From a bacterium (GTDB lineage Bacteria; Patescibacteriota; Microgenomatia; UBA8517), in the NCBI GenBank assembly GCA_030583725.1, contig CP129472.1:75-64074 (forward strand): a stretch of DNA of 64,000 nucleotides, given 5' to 3'. This document shows, in pieces, positions 38,675 to 61,256 of the stretch (position 1 is the stretch's first letter; every line of letters begins with the position of its first letter). A program made the translations under genes and the position numbers. The notes below the pieces were generated by a model. That model was given only the letters and a program-made list of their open reading frames with translations, had not been told where the DNA came from and searched no databases.

Positions 38675-39307
38675 ATAAATAAATTAAAAACAAAAAACAA
38701 AAAAGGTTTTACCTTGGTAGAACTTTTGATTGTAATTGGTTTACTTGGAGCAATTGCCTTAATTGTTATTGCTGCTATTAATCCTATTGAACAAGCAAAC
38801 AGAGCTCGCGACACAAGGTTTAAGTCAGATGCTGGTCAACTGATTTCCGCAATAGACAGATATTTTGCAGCTAATTCTAGATTTCCTTGGATGACAGTTA
38901 CACCTACTTACTCAACAGAAGACGAGTTTGGATTTGTAACCTCTTCCAGTCAAGAAGTCGGTCTTTGTGGTGCAACTTGTGCTGTCAATGGAGTCTTAAT
39001 AACCACCAATGAACTAAAAACAGAGTTTAGAAATAGAGATTTTGTTCAGGATGGTGGAGCAGGTGCAACACTAGATGAACAAATATTAATAGGTAAAGAG
39101 CAAGGTTCATCTGCATCAGTCTATGGTTGTTTTGTTCCTTTGGCTAATTCAACAAAACAAGTTGCAGTTACCGAAGGTAATGTTTACCAACCAAATACAT
39201 CAACTGGCGAAAAAGGTACTCCTGTTACAACTTGTGATGGAGCAGCAGGCGACGGAGCGGGTGTAAATTGGGTAACCAACGGTTGTTATGTTTGTATACC
39301 TCAGTAG
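38675..39307 (+). CDS. Type IV (pseudo)pilin, first of tandem array; probable non-ATG (ATA) initiation
   Basis: Class III signal ...KNKKG|FTLVELLIVIGLLGAIALI with Glu+5. The in-frame leader extends upstream of the only canonical start (TTG 38714) to a TGA at 38663-38665. AGGGAGGTGA lies 9 nt before ATA at 38675. Start coordinate uncertain. Confidence 0.6.
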   Translation: MNKLKTKNKKGFTLVELLIVIGLLGAIALIVIAAINPIEQANRARDTRFKSDAGQLISAIDRYFAANSRFPWMTVTPTYSTEDEFGFVTSSSQEVGLCGATCAVNGVLITTNELKTEFRNRDFVQDGGAGATLDEQILIGKEQGSSASVYGCFVPLANSTKQVAVTEGNVYQPNTSTGEKGTPVTTCDGAAGDGAGVNWVTNGCYVCIPQ

Positions 39308-39314
39308 TATAAGT

Positions 39315-40022
39315 ATGGAAGTTTATTTCATACTTATACTATTGGTTTTGGTAGCTTTGGCAATTGGCTCTTTTGTGTCAGCAGTCAGCTACCGTATTCC
39401 CAGAGATTTAAATTTTTCTAAAGGAAGATCTTTTTGTGACTTATGTCAGAAATACTTAAAATGGTATGACAATATTCCTTTATTTTCATACTTTTTTTAC
39501 TTTGGAAAATCAAGATGTTGTGGTCAAAAGATATCTATACGCTATCCACTAATTGAAGCCGCCTCAGTATTAGGAGCTTGTATTTTGTTTTTATTATTTC
39601 CGTTTTTAGAATTTATTCTTTACTATTCCCTCTTTGTTACATTACTTACAATATTGGTCATTGATATCGAGCATCAAATTATTCCTGATGAGCTTGTTTG
39701 GCTAACGTTACTAATTTCTATTTTAATAGTTAACACCTCACTTTTAACTACTTTGTTTTTTGCATTTCTTTTTTCAACGTTTCTCTTAAGTATCTATATA
39801 CTTACATCAGGAAAAGGTATGGGTTTGGGTGACGTAAAACTTGCAATTCCTTTAGGGTTAGTCTTAGGGCAAGAAAAAGGTTTAGTATGGTTATTGTCAA
39901 CTTTCATAATTGGTGGAATAGTAGCTTTATTCTTGCTAGTATTAAAGAAGGCAAAGTTAAAGACTAAAATTGCGTTTGGACCGTTCATGATAGTAGCTTT
40001 TTGGATTACGTTAATGTTATGA
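39315..40022 (+). CDS. pilD: Prepilin peptidase PilD (A24 family)
   Basis: N-terminal TM, zinc-binding tetracysteine motif CDLCQKYL...CCGQ, and about 6 TM with the catalytic-Asp region. ATG at 39315. Confidence 0.8.
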   Translation: MEVYFILILLVLVALAIGSFVSAVSYRIPRDLNFSKGRSFCDLCQKYLKWYDNIPLFSYFFYFGKSRCCGQKISIRYPLIEAASVLGACILFLLFPFLEFILYYSLFVTLLTILVIDIEHQIIPDELVWLTLLISILIVNTSLLTTLFFAFLFSTFLLSIYILTSGKGMGLGDVKLAIPLGLVLGQEKGLVWLLSTFIIGGIVALFLLVLKKAKLKTKIAFGPFMIVAFWITLML

Positions 40023-40660
40023 AAAAAAATATTAAAGGCTTTACTCTAACAGAGCTGTTAATAGTTGTGGGCTTGCTCTCATTTTTAGCGCTTCTAATTA
40101 TTCTCTTTTTAAGAAATCAAGTTCACAAGGGAAATGACGCTAGAAGAAAAGCTGAGATCAAAAGAATTGGTATTGCTGCAGAGGAATATGAAAAAGATAA
40201 CGATTGCTATCCCCTTTCAAGTCTTGTGGCCTGCAATCCTGGTAGTGGTTTATTACCATATTTGGATAAAATCCCTTGTGATCCTGTAACTAAGGCCTCT
40301 TATCTCTATGAACATGAAGATTCAAGTTGTCCAAAGTGGTATAGGATTTATGGCAGACTTGATAATGAGTCAGACGTAGATAGTACCCCTTATATTGGTC
40401 CTAACTCTGCATTTGACTATGTTTACTCAAGTCCAAATGCACCCGGAGTTGTTCCGGATGTACCAGCGCCTACAGCTAGTGGCGGAGGTGGAGGTGGAGC
40501 AGGTCAAACTACTTTCTATGGCTGTTTTAGTGGGTCTTGTATGGTCGTCCAATGGGATGTATCAAGGCCTGGTCCTGCTTGTGATCCGAACTTTCAAAAC
40601 CCAACCTGCTATGGACAATGTTCAAATTTAAATAACGAATGTCAACCTTGGAATCAATAA
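40019..40660 (+). CDS. Prepilin-type protein with Gly-rich C-terminal region
   Basis: MKKNIKG|FTLTELLIVVGLL. Start overlaps the pilD stop (ATGA). SGGGGGGAGQ and a Cys-rich tail. Confidence 0.65.
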   Translation: MKKNIKGFTLTELLIVVGLLSFLALLIILFLRNQVHKGNDARRKAEIKRIGIAAEEYEKDNDCYPLSSLVACNPGSGLLPYLDKIPCDPVTKASYLYEHEDSSCPKWYRIYGRLDNESDVDSTPYIGPNSAFDYVYSSPNAPGVVPDVPAPTASGGGGGGAGQTTFYGCFSGSCMVVQWDVSRPGPACDPNFQNPTCYGQCSNLNNECQPWNQ

Positions 40661-40670
40661 ATAAGTCTTA

Positions 40671-41177
40671 ATGAAAATCAAACCATTTACATTAGTTGAA
40701 ACAAAACTATTAGCATTTATATTTTTGGTGTTGTTTGTGGTTATTGGGTTTAATATGTCAATTTCTTTAAGGCGCGGTAGGGATGCCACAAGAAAAAATG
40801 ATATTTCAGCAATTCAAAAGGGATTAGATACCTACTATCAAAAGTATCGTATTTATCCCCAATCTACATCTGATGGAAAAATGATTGGATGTTTTACTGA
40901 AGAAGCTGTGACAGACATACTAACTGGATTACCATTAAATGTGGAGGTTTGTAATTGGGGTGAATCTAATTTTGAGGGTATGTCCCCTATGCCTAGGGAT
41001 CCAAGTGATAAAAAAGGTGTAAGTTACAAGTATGTTTCAGACGAGAAAAGCTATGGTTTTTATGTTTCTTTAGAAGGTAAGGATGAACCTGAATATAATT
41101 TAGGAACACAACAATTAGGATTGCAATGTGGCACTAAAGTATGCAATTATGGAAGAGTAGTTGAAAATGAAATATAG
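40671..41177 (+). CDS. Prepilin-like protein (atypical leader MKIKP|FTLVETKLL)
   Basis: N-terminal hydrophobic helix and Glu+5-like arrangement. RGRDATRKNDIS motif shared with neighbours. Confidence 0.55.
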   Translation: MKIKPFTLVETKLLAFIFLVLFVVIGFNMSISLRRGRDATRKNDISAIQKGLDTYYQKYRIYPQSTSDGKMIGCFTEEAVTDILTGLPLNVEVCNWGESNFEGMSPMPRDPSDKKGVSYKYVSDEKSYGFYVSLEGKDEPEYNLGTQQLGLQCGTKVCNYGRVVENEI

Positions 41178-41622
41178 TAAGCAAAACTTGGCCAGTAAAA
41201 CTGGTAAAAAAGGATTTACATTAGTTGAACTTTTAGTAGCAATGGCAATTATTGGAGTTTTGGCTGCAATGGCTGTTGGTAGTTTTAGAACTGCACAATT
41301 AAGGGGTAGGGATACACAGAGAAAGTCTGATCTAAAACAGGTTTCAAATGCTTTAGAACTTTATTATGCTGATTATGGAAGGTATCCTGATAGTTTGACT
41401 TGGGGTGGAGAGTTTACTGATGGCAGAACAATTTACTTTAAGGTTTTACCAACTGACCCATCTGGTGGTGTATACACCTATACTCTAGTTGGTGCTTCTA
41501 CCCAAAAATACCAGCTTTTTGCAAGACTTGAAAATACTGAAGATCAAGACTGTATACAAGACAACTGTGCGCAGAATCCCAATTTTGCAGTTACTAGTGC
41601 TAATACAACAGCAACAGAGTAA
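41161..41622 (+). CDS. Type IV pilin / GspG-like pseudopilin
   Basis: KKG|FTLVELLVAMAIIGVLAA...RGRDTQRKSDLKQVSNALELYYADYGRYPD (GspG-like). Confidence 0.75.
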   Translation: MKMKYSKQNLASKTGKKGFTLVELLVAMAIIGVLAAMAVGSFRTAQLRGRDTQRKSDLKQVSNALELYYADYGRYPDSLTWGGEFTDGRTIYFKVLPTDPSGGVYTYTLVGASTQKYQLFARLENTEDQDCIQDNCAQNPNFAVTSANTTATE

Positions 41623-56833: not shown

Positions 56834-56947
56834 TTATACATTGTTGATAGCTTCTGATGCAAGCTTGATAATTTCAGTTTGTGACCAGTCTGCAATTTTT
56901 AAGTTTCCAAAACCACTTTGCTTTGTTCCCAGTACATCTCCAGCCCT
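56834..56947 (-). pseudogene. Duplicated 3'-terminal fragment of recG (about 100 nt, about 94% identical to 59346-59445); direct repeat
   Basis: Nucleotide alignment GATAATTTCAGTTTGTGACCAGTCTGCAATTTTTAAGTTTCCAAAACCACTTTG... in both places. Encodes ...AGDVLGTKQSGFGNLKIADWSQTEIIKLASEAINNV*, versus the recG C-terminus ...GAGDVLGTKQSGFGNLKIADWSQTEIIKQASEAVNLTH*. Confidence 0.8.
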
Positions 56948-57007
56948 ATAAAGTTTTTGCAACAATTCTCTATTGAATATAGCAATCAAAAGCTTGACAA
57001 TAAGATG

Positions 57008-57013
57008 TATAAT
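57008..57013 (+). promoter_or_regulatory. TATAAT -10 box 8 nt upstream of the rSAM start codon with no SD (possible leaderless transcript)
   Basis: TATAAT at 57008-57013, ATG at 57022, no AGGAGG-like sequence between. TTGACA at 56991-56996 is too close (8-nt spacer) to be a canonical -35. Confidence 0.25.
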
Positions 57014-57021
57014 TACAAGAA

Positions 57022-58392
57022 ATGTCTTCCGAATATAAACCAGAGATAAAAGAGCTTCTGTCTTATGGAAAATATTTTCTAAAATCTGGAGTATTTTTGG
57101 TTGAGGGTCATTCAAGATGTGCGTTATACGATATAAATTCAGGAAATGTTTATTCGTTAGATAAAAATGCACAAAATGTTTTAACTGGTCAATCTGAAAA
57201 TGCTAACTTCTGGGAAAAATTAGTAGGAATGGGATTGTGTGCAGATAACAATTCTAATGAGAAACCAGTATTAAACGAATTAGAAAGCAAATCTACTCTA
57301 CAATTTGCTTGGTTTGAAATAGTTTCAAAGGATTGTAACGAAAGATGTTTACATTGTTACGGTGACTTTATGCCTCCAATTTTTCAAGAAAAAACAACTC
57401 AAAACGATGAAGTTGGGTTGACTTTCAATCAATGGAAAAATCAAATTAAAAATGTTTACGATTTGGGTTGTGAAACATGTCAATTTATAGGTGGTGAACC
57501 CTTTTTGTATAGAGGTGAAGGTGGAGAAACTGTTTTAGAATTAGCAGAATATGCAAAACAATTAGGTTTCAAATTTATTGAAATTTTTACAAACGGAACA
57601 TTACTTACTCAAGAAAAAATTGATCGTATAAAAGATTTAGGAATTAATATTGCTGTTTCTTTATATTCTACTGCTCCTGAAATTCACGACAAAATTACAA
57701 GAACACGAGGAAGTCATAAAAAGACTATGGAAGCCTTAGAAAGGCTCAAAGAAACAGGAGTACCTGTTAGGGTTGAAACTATACTAATGAAACAGAATGA
57801 AGAAAGTGCTGAAGAAACGCAAAAGTTAGTAGACCAAATGGGATTTTCTCACAAAAGGCTTGATGTTTTAAGACAAAATGGTAGAGGAGATAATCTTAAT
57901 TTATTGCCAAGTAATAGATCATTATTAAAAAATGGAATTATGACTGCACCAAATTTTTATATAAATAAGGAGATGTTGTCAAAAAACTTACACAACAATA
58001 GTTGTTTATCTGGAAAAATTGCAATCACAGATAATGGAGATGTTTTACCTTGTGTTTTCTCAAGAGATCAAGTAGTTGGTAATGTTCTTGAAAAATCACT
58101 CTTGCAAATTATAGATGAAGTTAAATTAAAAAGTGTTTGGGATAATACAAAAGATAGTGTTCAAGTTTGTAAAGATTGTGAATTTAGATATTGTTGTACA
58201 GATTGCAGACCCTCATCATTAGGGGCAAATCAAAATACTGGAGAATATCTAACTGCTCCTTATCCAAAATGTGCTTACAATCCATATGATGGAAAATGGG
58301 GAAAGGGATATTGGAAATTAGATTTTGAAGGAAAACCTATATATATTAATATTTTGAAAGGAGGTGAAGAAATAATTGAAAGCAGAACTTAA
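57022..58392 (+). CDS. Radical SAM / SPASM-type peptide-modifying enzyme with N-terminal RRE (PqqD-like) region
   Basis: CX3CX2C cluster CNERCLHC near aa 105-112. Gly-rich SAM-binding motif FIGGEPFLY. C-terminal auxiliary-cluster cysteines (CLSGK...PCVFSRD...VCKDCEFRYCCTDCRP...KCAY). N-terminal ~95 aa resembles a leader-peptide recognition element. Confidence 0.8.
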   Translation: MSSEYKPEIKELLSYGKYFLKSGVFLVEGHSRCALYDINSGNVYSLDKNAQNVLTGQSENANFWEKLVGMGLCADNNSNEKPVLNELESKSTLQFAWFEIVSKDCNERCLHCYGDFMPPIFQEKTTQNDEVGLTFNQWKNQIKNVYDLGCETCQFIGGEPFLYRGEGGETVLELAEYAKQLGFKFIEIFTNGTLLTQEKIDRIKDLGINIAVSLYSTAPEIHDKITRTRGSHKKTMEALERLKETGVPVRVETILMKQNEESAEETQKLVDQMGFSHKRLDVLRQNGRGDNLNLLPSNRSLLKNGIMTAPNFYINKEMLSKNLHNNSCLSGKIAITDNGDVLPCVFSRDQVVGNVLEKSLLQIIDEVKLKSVWDNTKDSVQVCKDCEFRYCCTDCRPSSLGANQNTGEYLTAPYPKCAYNPYDGKWGKGYWKLDFEGKPIYINILKGGEEIIESRT

Positions 58393-58627
58393 TTTAGAAC
58401 CAGAAATTGTTTTAGTAACAGCACAAGGTGCAACTGATGGGGTAATAGTAGCACCATGTACACCAAGTGCTTGTACACCAAATGTTGCATGTAATCCTAA
58501 CACTAATTGTGCACCGTTTAATTGTGCACCAGCGTTAAGACCATGTATGCCAGATTGTGCTCCTGCAACTCCTTGTTATCCAACACAAGGACCATGTGCA
58601 CCAGCATCAAGCTGTTATCCTCGTTAA
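58376..58627 (+). CDS. Cys/Pro-rich precursor-like peptide (83 aa), candidate RiPP substrate
   Basis: TTG start 8 nt after AAGGAGGTGA, overlapping the rSAM gene by 17 nt. 27-aa Cys-free leader then a core with 10 Cys, every one in a C-x-P triplet (CTP, CTP, CNP, CAP, CAP, CMP, CAP, CYP, CAP, CYP). Confidence 0.7.
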   Translation: MKAELNLEPEIVLVTAQGATDGVIVAPCTPSACTPNVACNPNTNCAPFNCAPALRPCMPDCAPATPCYPTQGPCAPASSCYPR

Positions 58628-58628
58628 G

Positions 58629-59297
58629 TTAACTTGGATTAGTGGTGAGTAGATAATCAGGCCAATTATTTGGGTATTTAGTAATTATTTTAGTTGTGTT
58701 TATTATTGCAAAATAATGTTGGTCATTATTTTTAAATAATGATTTGTTTAAGTTAATAAAAAATTTGTCCAGATTTTGTTTATGGTTTGGCCAAAAGATC
58801 TTACTCGCCGAATATTCAGAACATGAAGCAAAAAGTTCTCCATATTTGTCTAATCTATCAGAATAGACATGTCCAAACTCATGTAAAATAGTTGCATAAT
58901 AGCTTTCTTTTGTATGATATGGGTCATTTAAAGTTTTAGAATATTCGTTATGTATTTTAGTAAATGGAGTTAGTAATCCTCCACAAGGACCATTTATGTT
59001 TTTACCAGTTTTTTGTTTCAAAATATTTTTAAACTCTTCGATGTATATACCAGACATCCAAACCTTATGAGATAGATCATCTATTTTTTTAATATTGTGT
59101 AAAAATTTAGATAGCTTGTATTTATTATTAGTTCTTAACCAAACATAAAGATATCTTGAGTCAAAACTGATTACAGGAATATTTTTGATTCTATCTTTGC
59201 ACTTAAATATGTAATTCAATTTTGGATTCCAAAGTGTTTTTAAAGCATTTTCTATTGCAAGTAAGTCATTTTGTGAAGCAATATAGCATTCGAACAT
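58629..59297 (-). CDS. Putative zinc metallopeptidase (HEFGH motif), candidate leader peptidase
   Basis: ATILHEFGHVYSDRL HExxH motif. 222 aa. Convergent, 1-nt gap from the peptide gene. Inside the repeat-flanked insert. Confidence 0.5.
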   Translation of the reverse strand: MFECYIASQNDLLAIENALKTLWNPKLNYIFKCKDRIKNIPVISFDSRYLYVWLRTNNKYKLSKFLHNIKKIDDLSHKVWMSGIYIEEFKNILKQKTGKNINGPCGGLLTPFTKIHNEYSKTLNDPYHTKESYYATILHEFGHVYSDRLDKYGELFASCSEYSASKIFWPNHKQNLDKFFINLNKSLFKNNDQHYFAIINTTKIITKYPNNWPDYLLTTNPS

Positions 59298-59327: not shown

Positions 59328-59445
59328 TCAGTGCGTAAGATTTACAGCTTCTGAAGCTTGTTTGATAATTTCAGTTTGTGACCAGTCTGCAATTTTTAAG
59401 TTTCCAAAACCACTTTGTTTTGTTCCTAGTACATCACCAGCCCCA
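59328..59445. repeat. recG 3'-end copy of the ~100-nt direct repeat (partner at 56834-56947)
   Basis: See the pseudogene fragment entry. The two copies flank 56948-59327. Confidence 0.8.
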
Positions 59446-61256
59446 CGCAGTTTTAGATCAAGTTCTGCAAGTTCAAACCCTGAAGTTGTCTTAGTTAGTG
59501 CTGTAAGCCGTTTAGTTGCCTTGTCTGAGTCGTTCTCTGTGAACAATAGACAATATGACTCTTTTTCACCTCTCCCTACCCTACCTCTAAGTTGGTGGAG
59601 TTGGGCAAGGCCAAATCTATCTGCACCTTCTATTAACATAATAGTTGCATTTGGGATATCTATTCCTACCTCAACAACTGGGGTTGAGAGTAGAATGTCT
59701 AGTTTTTTACTTTTAAATTCATCAAGTACTTTATTTTTTTCAACTTCTTTCAATTTTCCATGAAGTAGTCCAATTTCAAGTTGTGGAAAAATAACCTTTA
59801 AGTTTTCATATTCCTTTTTTACAGACTTAACTGATTTTAGTGTTTCTGCTTCTGACTCTTCAACTAATGGACATATGATAAATGCTTGAGAACTATTGTC
59901 TTTAATAGTTTTTTTAATCCAGTCATATGCTTTCTCTCTTTTGTCATTTGGAACAAGCCATGTTTTTATTTTCTGTCTGTTTTTGGGCAACTCATCTAAA
60001 ATGGACAAATCCATATCAGAAAATAAAGTTTGGGCAATCGTTCTTGGTATAGGTGTAGCTGTCATTGTTAATAAATGTGGATTAATTTTTTGCATAAAGT
60101 TAACTTGTTTGACTCCGAACTTGTGCTGTTCATCAATTACTAATAGCCCAACTTTTTCAAAAGTTTTATTTAATAGCGCATGTGTTCCTACAATTATGTC
60201 ATTAACGCCTAGGTCTGATTTTACTACTGTACCTGTTATTAAAGATATTCTAATGGGGAGATTTTTAAATAGTTCCTTTAGTGTTTGATAGTGTTGGTTT
60301 GCAAGTATCTGGGTTGGAGCAAGAAAGACAGTCTGAAACCCAGAAAGAAAAGTTGTGTAGGCTGAAATTGCAGAGACTATTGTTTTTCCACTACCAACGT
60401 CACCCTGTAGTAGCCTATTCATTGGGGTGTTTTTGGATAGGTCATTAAATATTTCATCTAAATTTTTAACCTGTGAATTAGTCAACTTAAAAGGTAAGGA
60501 TTTGATAAAAGTATCAATCAACTTTTTGTTTACTTTAATTACTACTCCCCTTTTCTTAATTAGTTTGTTTTTTCTTTCTCTAGCTTTAACAAGTAGGTCA
60601 AAGAATTCATTAAAGGCTAGTCGCTCTTTTGCCTTCTCAGAACTTTTCAGGTTTTTAGGAAAATGAATATTATAAATCGCTTCTTTAAAACTTATCAGAT
60701 CGTTTTTGCTTAAAATGTCTTGACTTAAAAAGTCTTTAACTTCAATTCTATCTAGTGCATATTTAATTCTTGCCTTTAGCCACTTTGAAGTTAAGCCTGC
60801 AGTTTCAGGATATACCCCTACAATTTTAGCAGTGTGAATTGTTTCTTGGTTTTGATCAATCCTCTCAAATTGTGGTGAGAAAAAAGCAAGTTTTCTGTTA
60901 AACCAACTAGGTTTACCAGATATCATAAGTTTGATACCTGGGTAAAGCATTTTGGTTAGATAGGACTGGTTAAACCAGACCAAGTAAATACTTCCGGTTG
61001 TATCTTTAATTTGTCCAATTTGCATTGATCTTCCTGTTTTTGTTGGTTGGTTTTTAATTGAAGTTACTTCCCCAAAAACTGATACTATTTCATCAACTTT
61101 TAAGTCGTTAATTTTTGTAACCTTGCTAAAATCCAAATATCTGTGTGGAATGTGATGAAGTAAATTAGATACTGTTTCAATCCCCAGTATTTTTAATTTT
61201 TTTTGATAATTTGGTCCAACAAATGGAAGATCAGATACGGAGTCTGTAAGATTCAT
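59328..61256 (-). CDS. recG: ATP-dependent DNA helicase RecG
   Basis: Wedge/OB N-terminus, Walker A LLQGDVGSGKT, DEQH box, helicase C-terminal LRGRVGRG, C-terminal GDVLGTKQSG. 642 aa. Confidence 0.9.
   Translation of the reverse strand: MNLTDSVSDLPFVGPNYQKKLKILGIETVSNLLHHIPHRYLDFSKVTKINDLKVDEIVSVFGEVTSIKNQPTKTGRSMQIGQIKDTTGSIYLVWFNQSYLTKMLYPGIKLMISGKPSWFNRKLAFFSPQFERIDQNQETIHTAKIVGVYPETAGLTSKWLKARIKYALDRIEVKDFLSQDILSKNDLISFKEAIYNIHFPKNLKSSEKAKERLAFNEFFDLLVKARERKNKLIKKRGVVIKVNKKLIDTFIKSLPFKLTNSQVKNLDEIFNDLSKNTPMNRLLQGDVGSGKTIVSAISAYTTFLSGFQTVFLAPTQILANQHYQTLKELFKNLPIRISLITGTVVKSDLGVNDIIVGTHALLNKTFEKVGLLVIDEQHKFGVKQVNFMQKINPHLLTMTATPIPRTIAQTLFSDMDLSILDELPKNRQKIKTWLVPNDKREKAYDWIKKTIKDNSSQAFIICPLVEESEAETLKSVKSVKKEYENLKVIFPQLEIGLLHGKLKEVEKNKVLDEFKSKKLDILLSTPVVEVGIDIPNATIMLIEGADRFGLAQLHQLRGRVGRGEKESYCLLFTENDSDKATKRLTALTKTTSGFELAELDLKLRGAGDVLGTKQSGFGNLKIADWSQTEIIKQASEAVNLTH

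Follow-up and report, generated by a model that had tools for sequence, protein, structure and literature searches.

Our analysis of a 64,000-nucleotide stretch of Patescibacteriota DNA (contig CP129472.1, positions 75 to 64,074; hereafter the window) centres on a small open reading frame (ORF) at 58376..58627 (+), which encodes a peptide of 83 aa whose ten cysteines all stand in a Cys-x-Pro (C-x-P) context. Very probably, this ORF encodes the precursor of a peptide that is made on the ribosome and modified after translation (RiPP), of an undescribed family, with a core made of C-x-P units that is matured by the adjacent radical S-adenosylmethionine (SAM)/SPASM enzyme (57022..58392, +). The peptide gene is real and conserved. 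Enzyme, peptide and a convergent gene for an HExxH protein co-occur across loci, and the peptides combine a conserved leader with a core that is hypervariable except for Cys and the Pro two residues after it, Pro(+2). The original prediction, made from the window alone, had proposed that the peptide is the precursor of the overlapping radical SAM enzyme and that C-x-P is the recognised unit; the linkage of the two genes in 70 of 90 loci, the conserved leader and the RiPP-maturase architecture of the enzyme all support this proposal.

The peptide gene and its Cys-x-Pro core

The product of 58376..58627 is MKAELNLEPEIVLVTAQGATDGVIVAPCTPSACTPNVACNPNTNCAPFNCAPALRPCMPDCAPATPCYPTQGPCAPASSCYPR, with Pro at the +2 position of 10 of 10 Cys. 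Its TTG start codon lies 8 nt behind the Shine-Dalgarno (SD) sequence GGAGGTGA (58360..58367, +) within the 3′ end of the enzyme gene, and the two genes overlap by 17 nt at the stop of the upstream gene. Four relatives carry an ATG aligned to this TTG and keep the SD, which bears out the start and the ribosome binding site that had been proposed. Residues 1–27 (58376..58456, +) form the leader, with EPEIVLVT at residues 8–15 (nt 58397–58420), and residues 28–83 (58457..58627, +) form the core of ten C-x-P units, which ends in CYPR and is followed by the stop codon. The same 83-aa product is found in GenBank as WKZ25758.1, hypothetical protein QY322_00370, on an 841,695-bp contig of a metagenome-assembled genome. 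An antisense ORF of 61 aa (58318–58503, −) overlaps the 5′ half of the peptide gene and shows no sign of being a gene; its counterparts in relatives mirror the conserved sense frame.

The regularity of the core is not an effect of its composition: the 56-residue core, which holds 13 Pro and 10 Cys, was shuffled 1e6 times without ever reaching ten C-x-P units, and the shuffles gave a maximum of 8 and a mode of 2. In a six-frame translation of the whole window, 6.5% of all Cys are in C-x-P context, and no other segment with at least five Cys exceeded 45%. The original observation of ten out of ten is confirmed.

A homology search with the peptide returned 15 small proteins of 71–94 aa. In the alignment of the resulting 16 homologues the leader positions P9, E10, I11, L13 and V14 are invariant or nearly so. 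The same holds for N36, N42 and N49 and for Cys and Pro(+2) in units one to seven, and the x positions of the C-x-P units are variable. At the codon level, a gap-free block of 27 codons from 15 DNA sequences uses both TGT and TGC at fixed Cys and all of CCA, CCG, CCC and CCT at fixed Pro, and the codons of the x positions show non-synonymous change. The sequences for these codon counts were chosen with the C.P pattern, and only the synonymous variation among them counts as evidence; the invariance of Cys and Pro rests independently on the homology-based peptide alignment. These comparisons show that the reading frame of the peptide has been conserved, with selection acting on the protein. A profile of the peptide run against 1.84 billion representative sequences gave 19 matches and, because the cores are hypervariable, catches the close subfamily alone. 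Scans of Pfam and NCBIfam with the window peptide and three distant peptides found no family; one family member gave a faint match to the Pfam family MSSP (E 1.3). Many cores (for example in loci L015, L022, L027, L030 and L059) carry Cys-free, basic, Pro-rich C-terminal tails such as APRPPKPPGPN and KQPPPKPPRPS, unlike the window peptide with its terminal CYPR, and these tails recall proline-rich antimicrobial peptides.

The C-x-P rule was followed across 90 loci with enzymes ranging from 88% down to 34% identity, which were obtained via the peptide homologues, a scan of genome contigs and an alignment-based scan of metagenomes. The genome-contig scan with a single enzyme sequence yielded three loci only, one of them unrelated, and it was the alignment-based metagenome scan that was productive. 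In 70 of the 90 loci, the start of a small ORF that holds three or more C-x-P units lies within about 500 nt of where the enzyme gene ends. At least five further loci carry a leader-bearing C-x-P ORF elsewhere, which lies upstream in L054, L063, L085 and L087; L062 has two tandem leader-bearing C-x-P ORFs on the opposite strand, and in three additional loci there are short downstream candidates with two units. Where a C-x-P ORF is missing, the locus is mostly cut off by a contig edge; three loci (L039, L046 and L090) offer room enough and have none. The leader motif [E/K]P[E/T]I.LVT recurs in most loci of the Patescibacteria type.

After removal of redundancy and of three spurious entries, 54 peptides were left, which belong to enzymes of 34–88% identity. 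Among them, 435 of the 443 core Cys (98%) are in C-x-P context and the other eight are confined to four peptides, so that the alignment of small ORFs beside related enzymes, suggested at the outset as a check of the C-x-P spacing, came out in favour of it. The number of Cys per peptide ranges from 3 to 25 with a median of 8. Spacings between Cys have modes of 4 and 6 (102 of 389 are 4), and spacings of 3 or less, of the CC, CxC or CxxC type, account for 15 of the 389 (3 + 12). The +1 position accepts 19 different residues, N, R, A, T and S are the commonest at the +3 position, and the +4 position is free, with Arg in 13 of the 435 units; Ala is absent among the few residues that substitute Pro(+2) in the set of core Cys. 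To judge from these units, only Cys and Pro(+2) are constrained, and C-x-P is the defining feature of the whole family.

The rule extends to a distant clade (L075, L076, L079–L081, L084 and L088), whose enzymes are 34–37% identical to that of the window and whose highly repetitive cores hold 10–25 C-x-P units. In the segment examined, all 23 of 23 Cys of L084 are in C-x-P context, with CNPSTG (four times) and CNPRF repeats, likewise 19 of 19 in L081, and the L075 and L076 cores repeat CWPRQQ eight to nine times. The leader of this clade differs and reads RPKWExPEMSDW, followed by an acidic run. In two inspected loci of the clade, L079 and (upstream) L075, the enzyme–peptide pair is found in a clpP–tig … eno-type context that is not of the Patescibacteria type.

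The radical SAM/SPASM enzyme and its possible chemistry

The putative maturase (57022..58392, +; 456 aa, WKZ25757.1) matches the Pfam families PF04055 (E 7.6e-26) and PF13186, the SPASM domain (E 1.8e-7), both above the gathering scores. No NCBIfam model reached its cut-off with this enzyme or with two distant enzymes of the family. The best scores of 91–108 bits, against cut-offs of 175–625, were for AhbD, TIGR04053, NirJ2, the SPASM part of the grasp-with-spasm maturase and StsB (91 against 625); AlbA scored 69 against 850, SkfB-type models scored 70–73 against 300, and the model for anaerobic sulfatase-maturating enzymes (anSME), TIGR03942, ranked 21st with 57 against 349. Across a non-redundant set of 62 members of the family, the motif of the radical SAM cluster, C105-x3-C109-x2-C112, is invariant, as are seven SPASM Cys (C328, C344, C383, C386, C392, C395 and C417, the last in 60 of 62), whose middle motif is CX2CX5CX2C. 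An eighth Cys is not conserved anywhere in the C-terminal half of these 62 enzymes.

An AlphaFold2 (AF2) model based on a 24-sequence alignment had a predicted local distance difference test (pLDDT) score of 61 overall, with reasonable confidence for the barrel and for residues ~10–90 (pLDDT 68–89), which fold into three strands and then helices as a three-strand, three-helix domain. Within this part, residues 24–87 show in the model the topology of a RiPP recognition element (RRE) and look like a peptide-recognition domain. A Foldseek comparison with the PDB placed SkfB, SuiB, TigE and CteB first, with 300–350 aligned columns, and all four of these enzymes have an N-terminal recognition domain followed by radical SAM and SPASM or Twitch domains. 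The next matches were viperin, MoaA and anSME with ~200–260 columns (anSMEcpe, E about 1e-6). When a profile of the family was compared with the sequences in the PDB, the nearest match was TigE (8VPO, E 3e-10), and it was the radical SAM core alone that matched in TigE, BlsE, SkfB and viperins; the SPASM domain on its own gave noise only. The profile matches are limited to the radical SAM core and, therefore, homology cannot assign the chemistry.

Some gene calls join the enzyme, or an N-terminal part of it, to a C-x-P core: in P0131 (539 aa) the full enzyme runs into leader and core, and in P0178 (228 aa) and P0186 (128 aa) an N-terminal enzyme fragment runs directly into the core. Such calls may reflect genuine fusions or derivatives that arose by deletion, or they may be artefacts of assembly or frameshift. 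In the Woesebacteria GWB1_33_22 lineage, two independent assemblies have TGA in place of the codon for the invariant Trp97 of the enzyme (L012:3289-3291; L009:3501-4706), and the L009 enzyme is also without the CX2CX5CX2C block of the SPASM domain; peptide and peptidase genes are intact there. The cassette of this lineage is probably decaying.

Docking of the leader, modification of each unit, thioether formation and the part played by the peptidase are what we infer, in a sequence of steps that might run as follows. The peptide would be translated from its TTG codon, coupled to the upstream gene, and its leader EPEIVLVT, in the form of a beta-strand, would be bound by the enzyme's N-terminal recognition domain; a docked leader is known from CteA on CteB (PMC6231123). 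The enzyme would progress along the core and modify each C-x-P unit, with Cys as the reacting residue and Pro(+2) as a turn-forming recognition element or as the reaction partner. An oxidative C–S (thioether) bond would be formed, with the substrate thiolate on the open iron of auxiliary cluster I (Aux I), as happens in the synthases of sactipeptides and ranthipeptides. Removal or trimming of the leader would then fall to the convergent HExxH zinc peptidase.

We tentatively favour thioether-type chemistry because of the Cys-based core, the seven-Cys SPASM domain and the best fold matches. The seven Cys fit the thioether-forming type since AlbA has the same count for its two clusters and in CteB a substrate Cys binds to Aux I at an open site, whereas the auxiliary clusters of anSME, SuiB and PqqE are fully ligated (PMC6231123). 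The acceptor could be variable residues, which would be linked via their alpha carbons (sactionine type), or Pro(+2), which would give three-residue rings.

Several points weigh against this reading. Expression and modification of the peptide are both predictions from sequence. The 435 units contain no conserved acceptor residue apart from Pro(+2), and known multi-thioether RiPPs usually have a defined acceptor, such as Asp in the CX3D units of PapB substrates or Asn in the NxxC peptides. Residues 1–95 of the enzyme gave no PqqD/RRE match in Pfam, the AF2 model is moderate overall, and its SPASM part is unreliable. The seven-Cys count is compatible with an open Aux I site and does not prove one, as a Tyr fills this site in TigE (PMC10878394). 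Furthermore, no transporter or immunity gene is linked to the pair in the 90 loci, and two inspected loci of the distant clade have no linked peptidase.

A special case of the thioether reading would be new chemistry, namely a cross-link from the sulfur of Cys(i) to the ring or alpha carbon of Pro(i+2). The core would thereby become a chain of thia-macrocycles with three residues each, comparable to the three-residue cyclophanes found in triceptides, whose radical SAM/SPASM enzymes make i-to-i+2 rings on repeated three-residue motifs. Such a link would account for Cys and Pro(+2) as the sole conserved positions in the 435 units. It would also suit units as short as four residues (C-x-P-x), which correspond to a mode of the spacing and leave little room for another partner, and a seven-Cys SPASM domain is compatible with a thiolate on Aux I. 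However, we know of no precedent for a Cys–Pro thioether made by a radical SAM enzyme, the Pro may serve conformation only, as in sulfatase motifs, and the computed data do not separate Cys–Pro links from sactionine-type links to variable residues. We regard the Cys–Pro link as rather unlikely.

The main chemical rival retains the RiPP system and replaces the reaction. In an anSME-like mechanism, abstraction of a C-beta hydrogen would convert each Cys to formylglycine or some other residue that is oxidised or desulfurised, and the product would be a poly-aldehyde or an otherwise Cys-converted peptide without cross-links. The anSMEs count among the founders of the SPASM family, and they recognise (C/S)-x-(P/A)-x-R in their substrates, to our knowledge the only known radical SAM recognition motif that contains Cys-x-Pro. 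The first unit of the window peptide, CTPSA, differs from the canonical CTPSR by a single residue, the conservation of Cys and Pro(+2) with no partner fits a modification confined to Cys, and anSMEcpe is among the significant fold matches. The low score and rank of the anSME model speak against this mechanism, as do the rarity of Arg(+4), the complete lack of Ala in place of Pro(+2), and a predicted N-terminal recognition domain that anSME does not have and the better fold matches do. Moreover, the window ORFs include no sulfatase gene nearby, and a peptide with ten aldehydes would be highly reactive. The eight auxiliary-cluster Cys of anSME, with fully ligated clusters (PMC6231123), also differ from the seven in the window enzyme family, and we consider the anSME-like reaction distinctly improbable.

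Very little, finally, speaks for a peptide that is not a substrate at all, the metallothionein-like alternative of the original prediction: an unmodified, Cys/Pro-rich metal-binding or disulfide-rich structural peptide would suit the high Cys content (10 of 83 residues), the C-G-P and C-x-P repeats of eukaryotic structural proteins and the faint MSSP match, but it fits poorly with a peptide–enzyme linkage kept from 88% to 34% enzyme identity in many genomic contexts, with a conserved N-terminal leader before a hypervariable core, with an obligatory enzyme partner that is fused to the peptide in some gene calls, with a linked peptidase, with the near absence of CC, CxC and CxxC spacings and with the lack of any Pfam metallothionein match.

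The HExxH protein and the apparent mobility of the cassette

The third gene of the cassette (58629..59297, −; 222 aa, WKZ25759.1) is convergent to the peptide gene and separated from its stop by one base. It encodes a putative compact gluzincin zinc peptidase with the motif HEFGH, which is a candidate for the leader peptidase. In Pfam it has a weak zincin match (PF18818, E 0.028) and no M1 or M4 match. Its 22 homologues share invariant H139, E140, H143, E154 and C159 as well as G106-G-L-L-x-P-F112, and the protein is predicted with confidence to have a gluzincin fold, in which HExxH and a downstream Glu ligand stand on a thermolysin-like/M1-like fold, with 7–14% identity to the structural matches.

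In 65 loci the sequence continues downstream for 1.1 kb or more; 47 of these have a homologue of this protein, which is convergent and directly follows the peptide gene in 45 of the 47. Every one of the 65 loci with an enzyme ~49% identical or more has it. In seven of the 18 loci without it we found an unrelated HExxH family of ~255 aa with the pattern WGHxEDWxNYSxVYLxHExxH ... ELxxDNExRxRLN and without a Pfam match (L047:4606-5466, L054:2186-2950, L063:2184-2942, L073:2481-3239, L083:3722-4492, L085:2088-2897 and L087:609-1427). The gene order is peptide, HExxH and enzyme in four of these seven, and the second family looks like a non-orthologous replacement at the peptidase position. Neither family was found in the loci of the distant clade, of which L079 is without any peptidase gene. 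All-against-all clustering of the ORFs from the 90 loci brought out the two HExxH families only, with no recurrent transporter, immunity gene or second modifying enzyme.

In the window the three genes are bracketed by a direct repeat of 114 nt (89% identity, 2497 nt apart). Its left copy (56844..56957) is an orphan recG 3′ end between rpmF and the cassette, where an ORF at 56834..57172 (−) terminates with RecG C-terminal sequence, and its right copy (59341..59454) lies inside the 3′ end of an intact recG (59328..61256, −). This arrangement suggests that the cassette was inserted or exchanged at the recG/rpmF site. Woesebacteria GWF1_31_35 has the cassette at the same rpmF/recG site without the duplication, the GWB1_33_22 lineage has it between pilO-like and KH-domain genes in an otherwise syntenic region, and further relatives have it among quite different neighbours. 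Because relatives carry it at different sites and beside different neighbours, the cassette appears to move as a unit. A scan of viral contigs found radical SAM genes of 25–33% identity only and no family members, so that the cassette was not seen on the viral contigs scanned.

The enzyme has 880 database matches. The best 120 of the 880 all have E <1e-136 and at least 47% identity, so that there are at least 120 cluster representatives at this level, and where these best 120 are named they belong to Woesebacteria, Roizmanbacteria, Levybacteria, Daviesbacteria and the “Patescibacteria group”. The peptide family is widespread in the ultra-small bacteria of the candidate phyla radiation (CPR), with hosts that are mainly Patescibacteria; relatives occur at the Hainich and Rifle groundwater sites.

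Elsewhere in the window, one other Cys-rich segment with several C-x-P (40001–40660, 5 of 11 Cys) is type IV pilin-like and unrelated to the peptide. Type IV pilin-like genes with N-terminal FTLxELL motifs (38714–41622) adjoin a prepilin-peptidase-like membrane protein (39288–40022).

Significance and comparison with known systems

The peptide is covered by no model in Pfam or NCBIfam (release 20), nor does any model there name the enzyme, and GenBank lists all three cassette genes as “hypothetical” or under generic names. In the published literature on radical SAM RiPPs, ranthipeptides, thioethers and Patescibacteria/CPR we came across no account of C-x-P peptides. Radical SAM/SPASM RiPPs whose cores repeat a motif are well known as a kind; here the motif and the host range are new and the chemistry is possibly new. 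CPR bacteria have tiny genomes and are usually reported with few or no biosynthetic gene clusters. One survey found no such clusters in its Patescibacteria genomes (PMC11613949). The present three-gene cassette is found in many CPR genomes, and its strict two-residue rule is unlike any described RiPP core. As a tentative proposal, for which the odds are appreciable and still below even, C-x-P may mark new radical SAM chemistry, in the form of Cys(i)–Pro(i+2) thioether rings or of a multi-site, sulfatase-like Cys conversion. It would then define a new RiPP class. Among Microgenomates-type CPR this would be the chief peptide natural-product system that can be recognised, and it would travel as a compact 2.5-kb cassette of enzyme, peptide and peptidase. 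If either reaction holds, the repertoire of radical SAM/SPASM enzymes would be wider, and peptide engineering would gain C-x-P as a very short and portable recognition tag. With one enzyme, one substrate of 83 aa and one peptidase of 222 aa, the system is small and complete in itself, and it can therefore be directly tested by heterologous expression.

With the sactipeptide and ranthipeptide systems (CteB/SCIFF, AlbA/subtilosin, PapB/freyrasin and SkfB) the cassette shares a Cys-rich, leader-bearing precursor beside a radical SAM enzyme, a (here predicted) N-terminal recognition domain together with SPASM or Twitch, and the seven SPASM Cys of AlbA and CteB; SkfB and CteB are among the best fold matches of the window enzyme. 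The core of the PapB substrate, with its six CX3D units, is repetitive like the C-x-P core. By contrast, the conserved partner in the C-x-P family is Pro(+2) with no conserved acceptor, the SPASM motif is CX2CX5CX2C and not CX2CX5CX3C, and the hosts are mainly Patescibacteria. The enzyme does not fall into a named family of these maturases, as no named model was reached and the StsB, AlbA and SkfB-type scores lie far under the cut-offs, and the peptide matches no SCIFF or sactipeptide model.

The anSME/AtsB enzymes are likewise SPASM radical SAM enzymes that target a Cys with Pro(+2), and CTPSA resembles their CTPSR. Their substrate is a sulfatase, whereas the C-x-P substrate is a small, leader-bearing peptide with 3–25 units, and the C-x-P enzyme has seven instead of eight auxiliary-cluster Cys and an additional N-terminal domain. 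By its Cys count and its TIGR03942 score the enzyme is placed outside the anSMEs; of the sulfatase motif, the C-x-P part is present and Arg(+4) is mostly not.

A further parallel is given by the repeat-motif RiPPs TigE/TigB (TIGSVS; PMC10878394), TvgB/TvgA (TVGG) and the triceptides (aromatic-x-x), in which a single radical SAM/SPASM enzyme that has a recognition domain modifies each copy of the motif, as we predict here. These motifs are based on Ile, Val or aromatic residues and not on Cys, and the match to TigE is limited to the radical SAM core. Some RiPP leader peptidases are M1-family or thermolysin-like gluzincins, from which the HExxH protein of the window differs by its 222 aa and single domain. 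The peptide also falls outside the metallothioneins, with its spacing modes of 4 and 6, its leader and enzyme partner and no Pfam match to that class. Of the features of a radical SAM RiPP system, the cassette has the CX3CX2C motif with a seven-Cys SPASM domain and, next to the enzyme gene, a co-inherited small gene whose leader is conserved and whose core varies.

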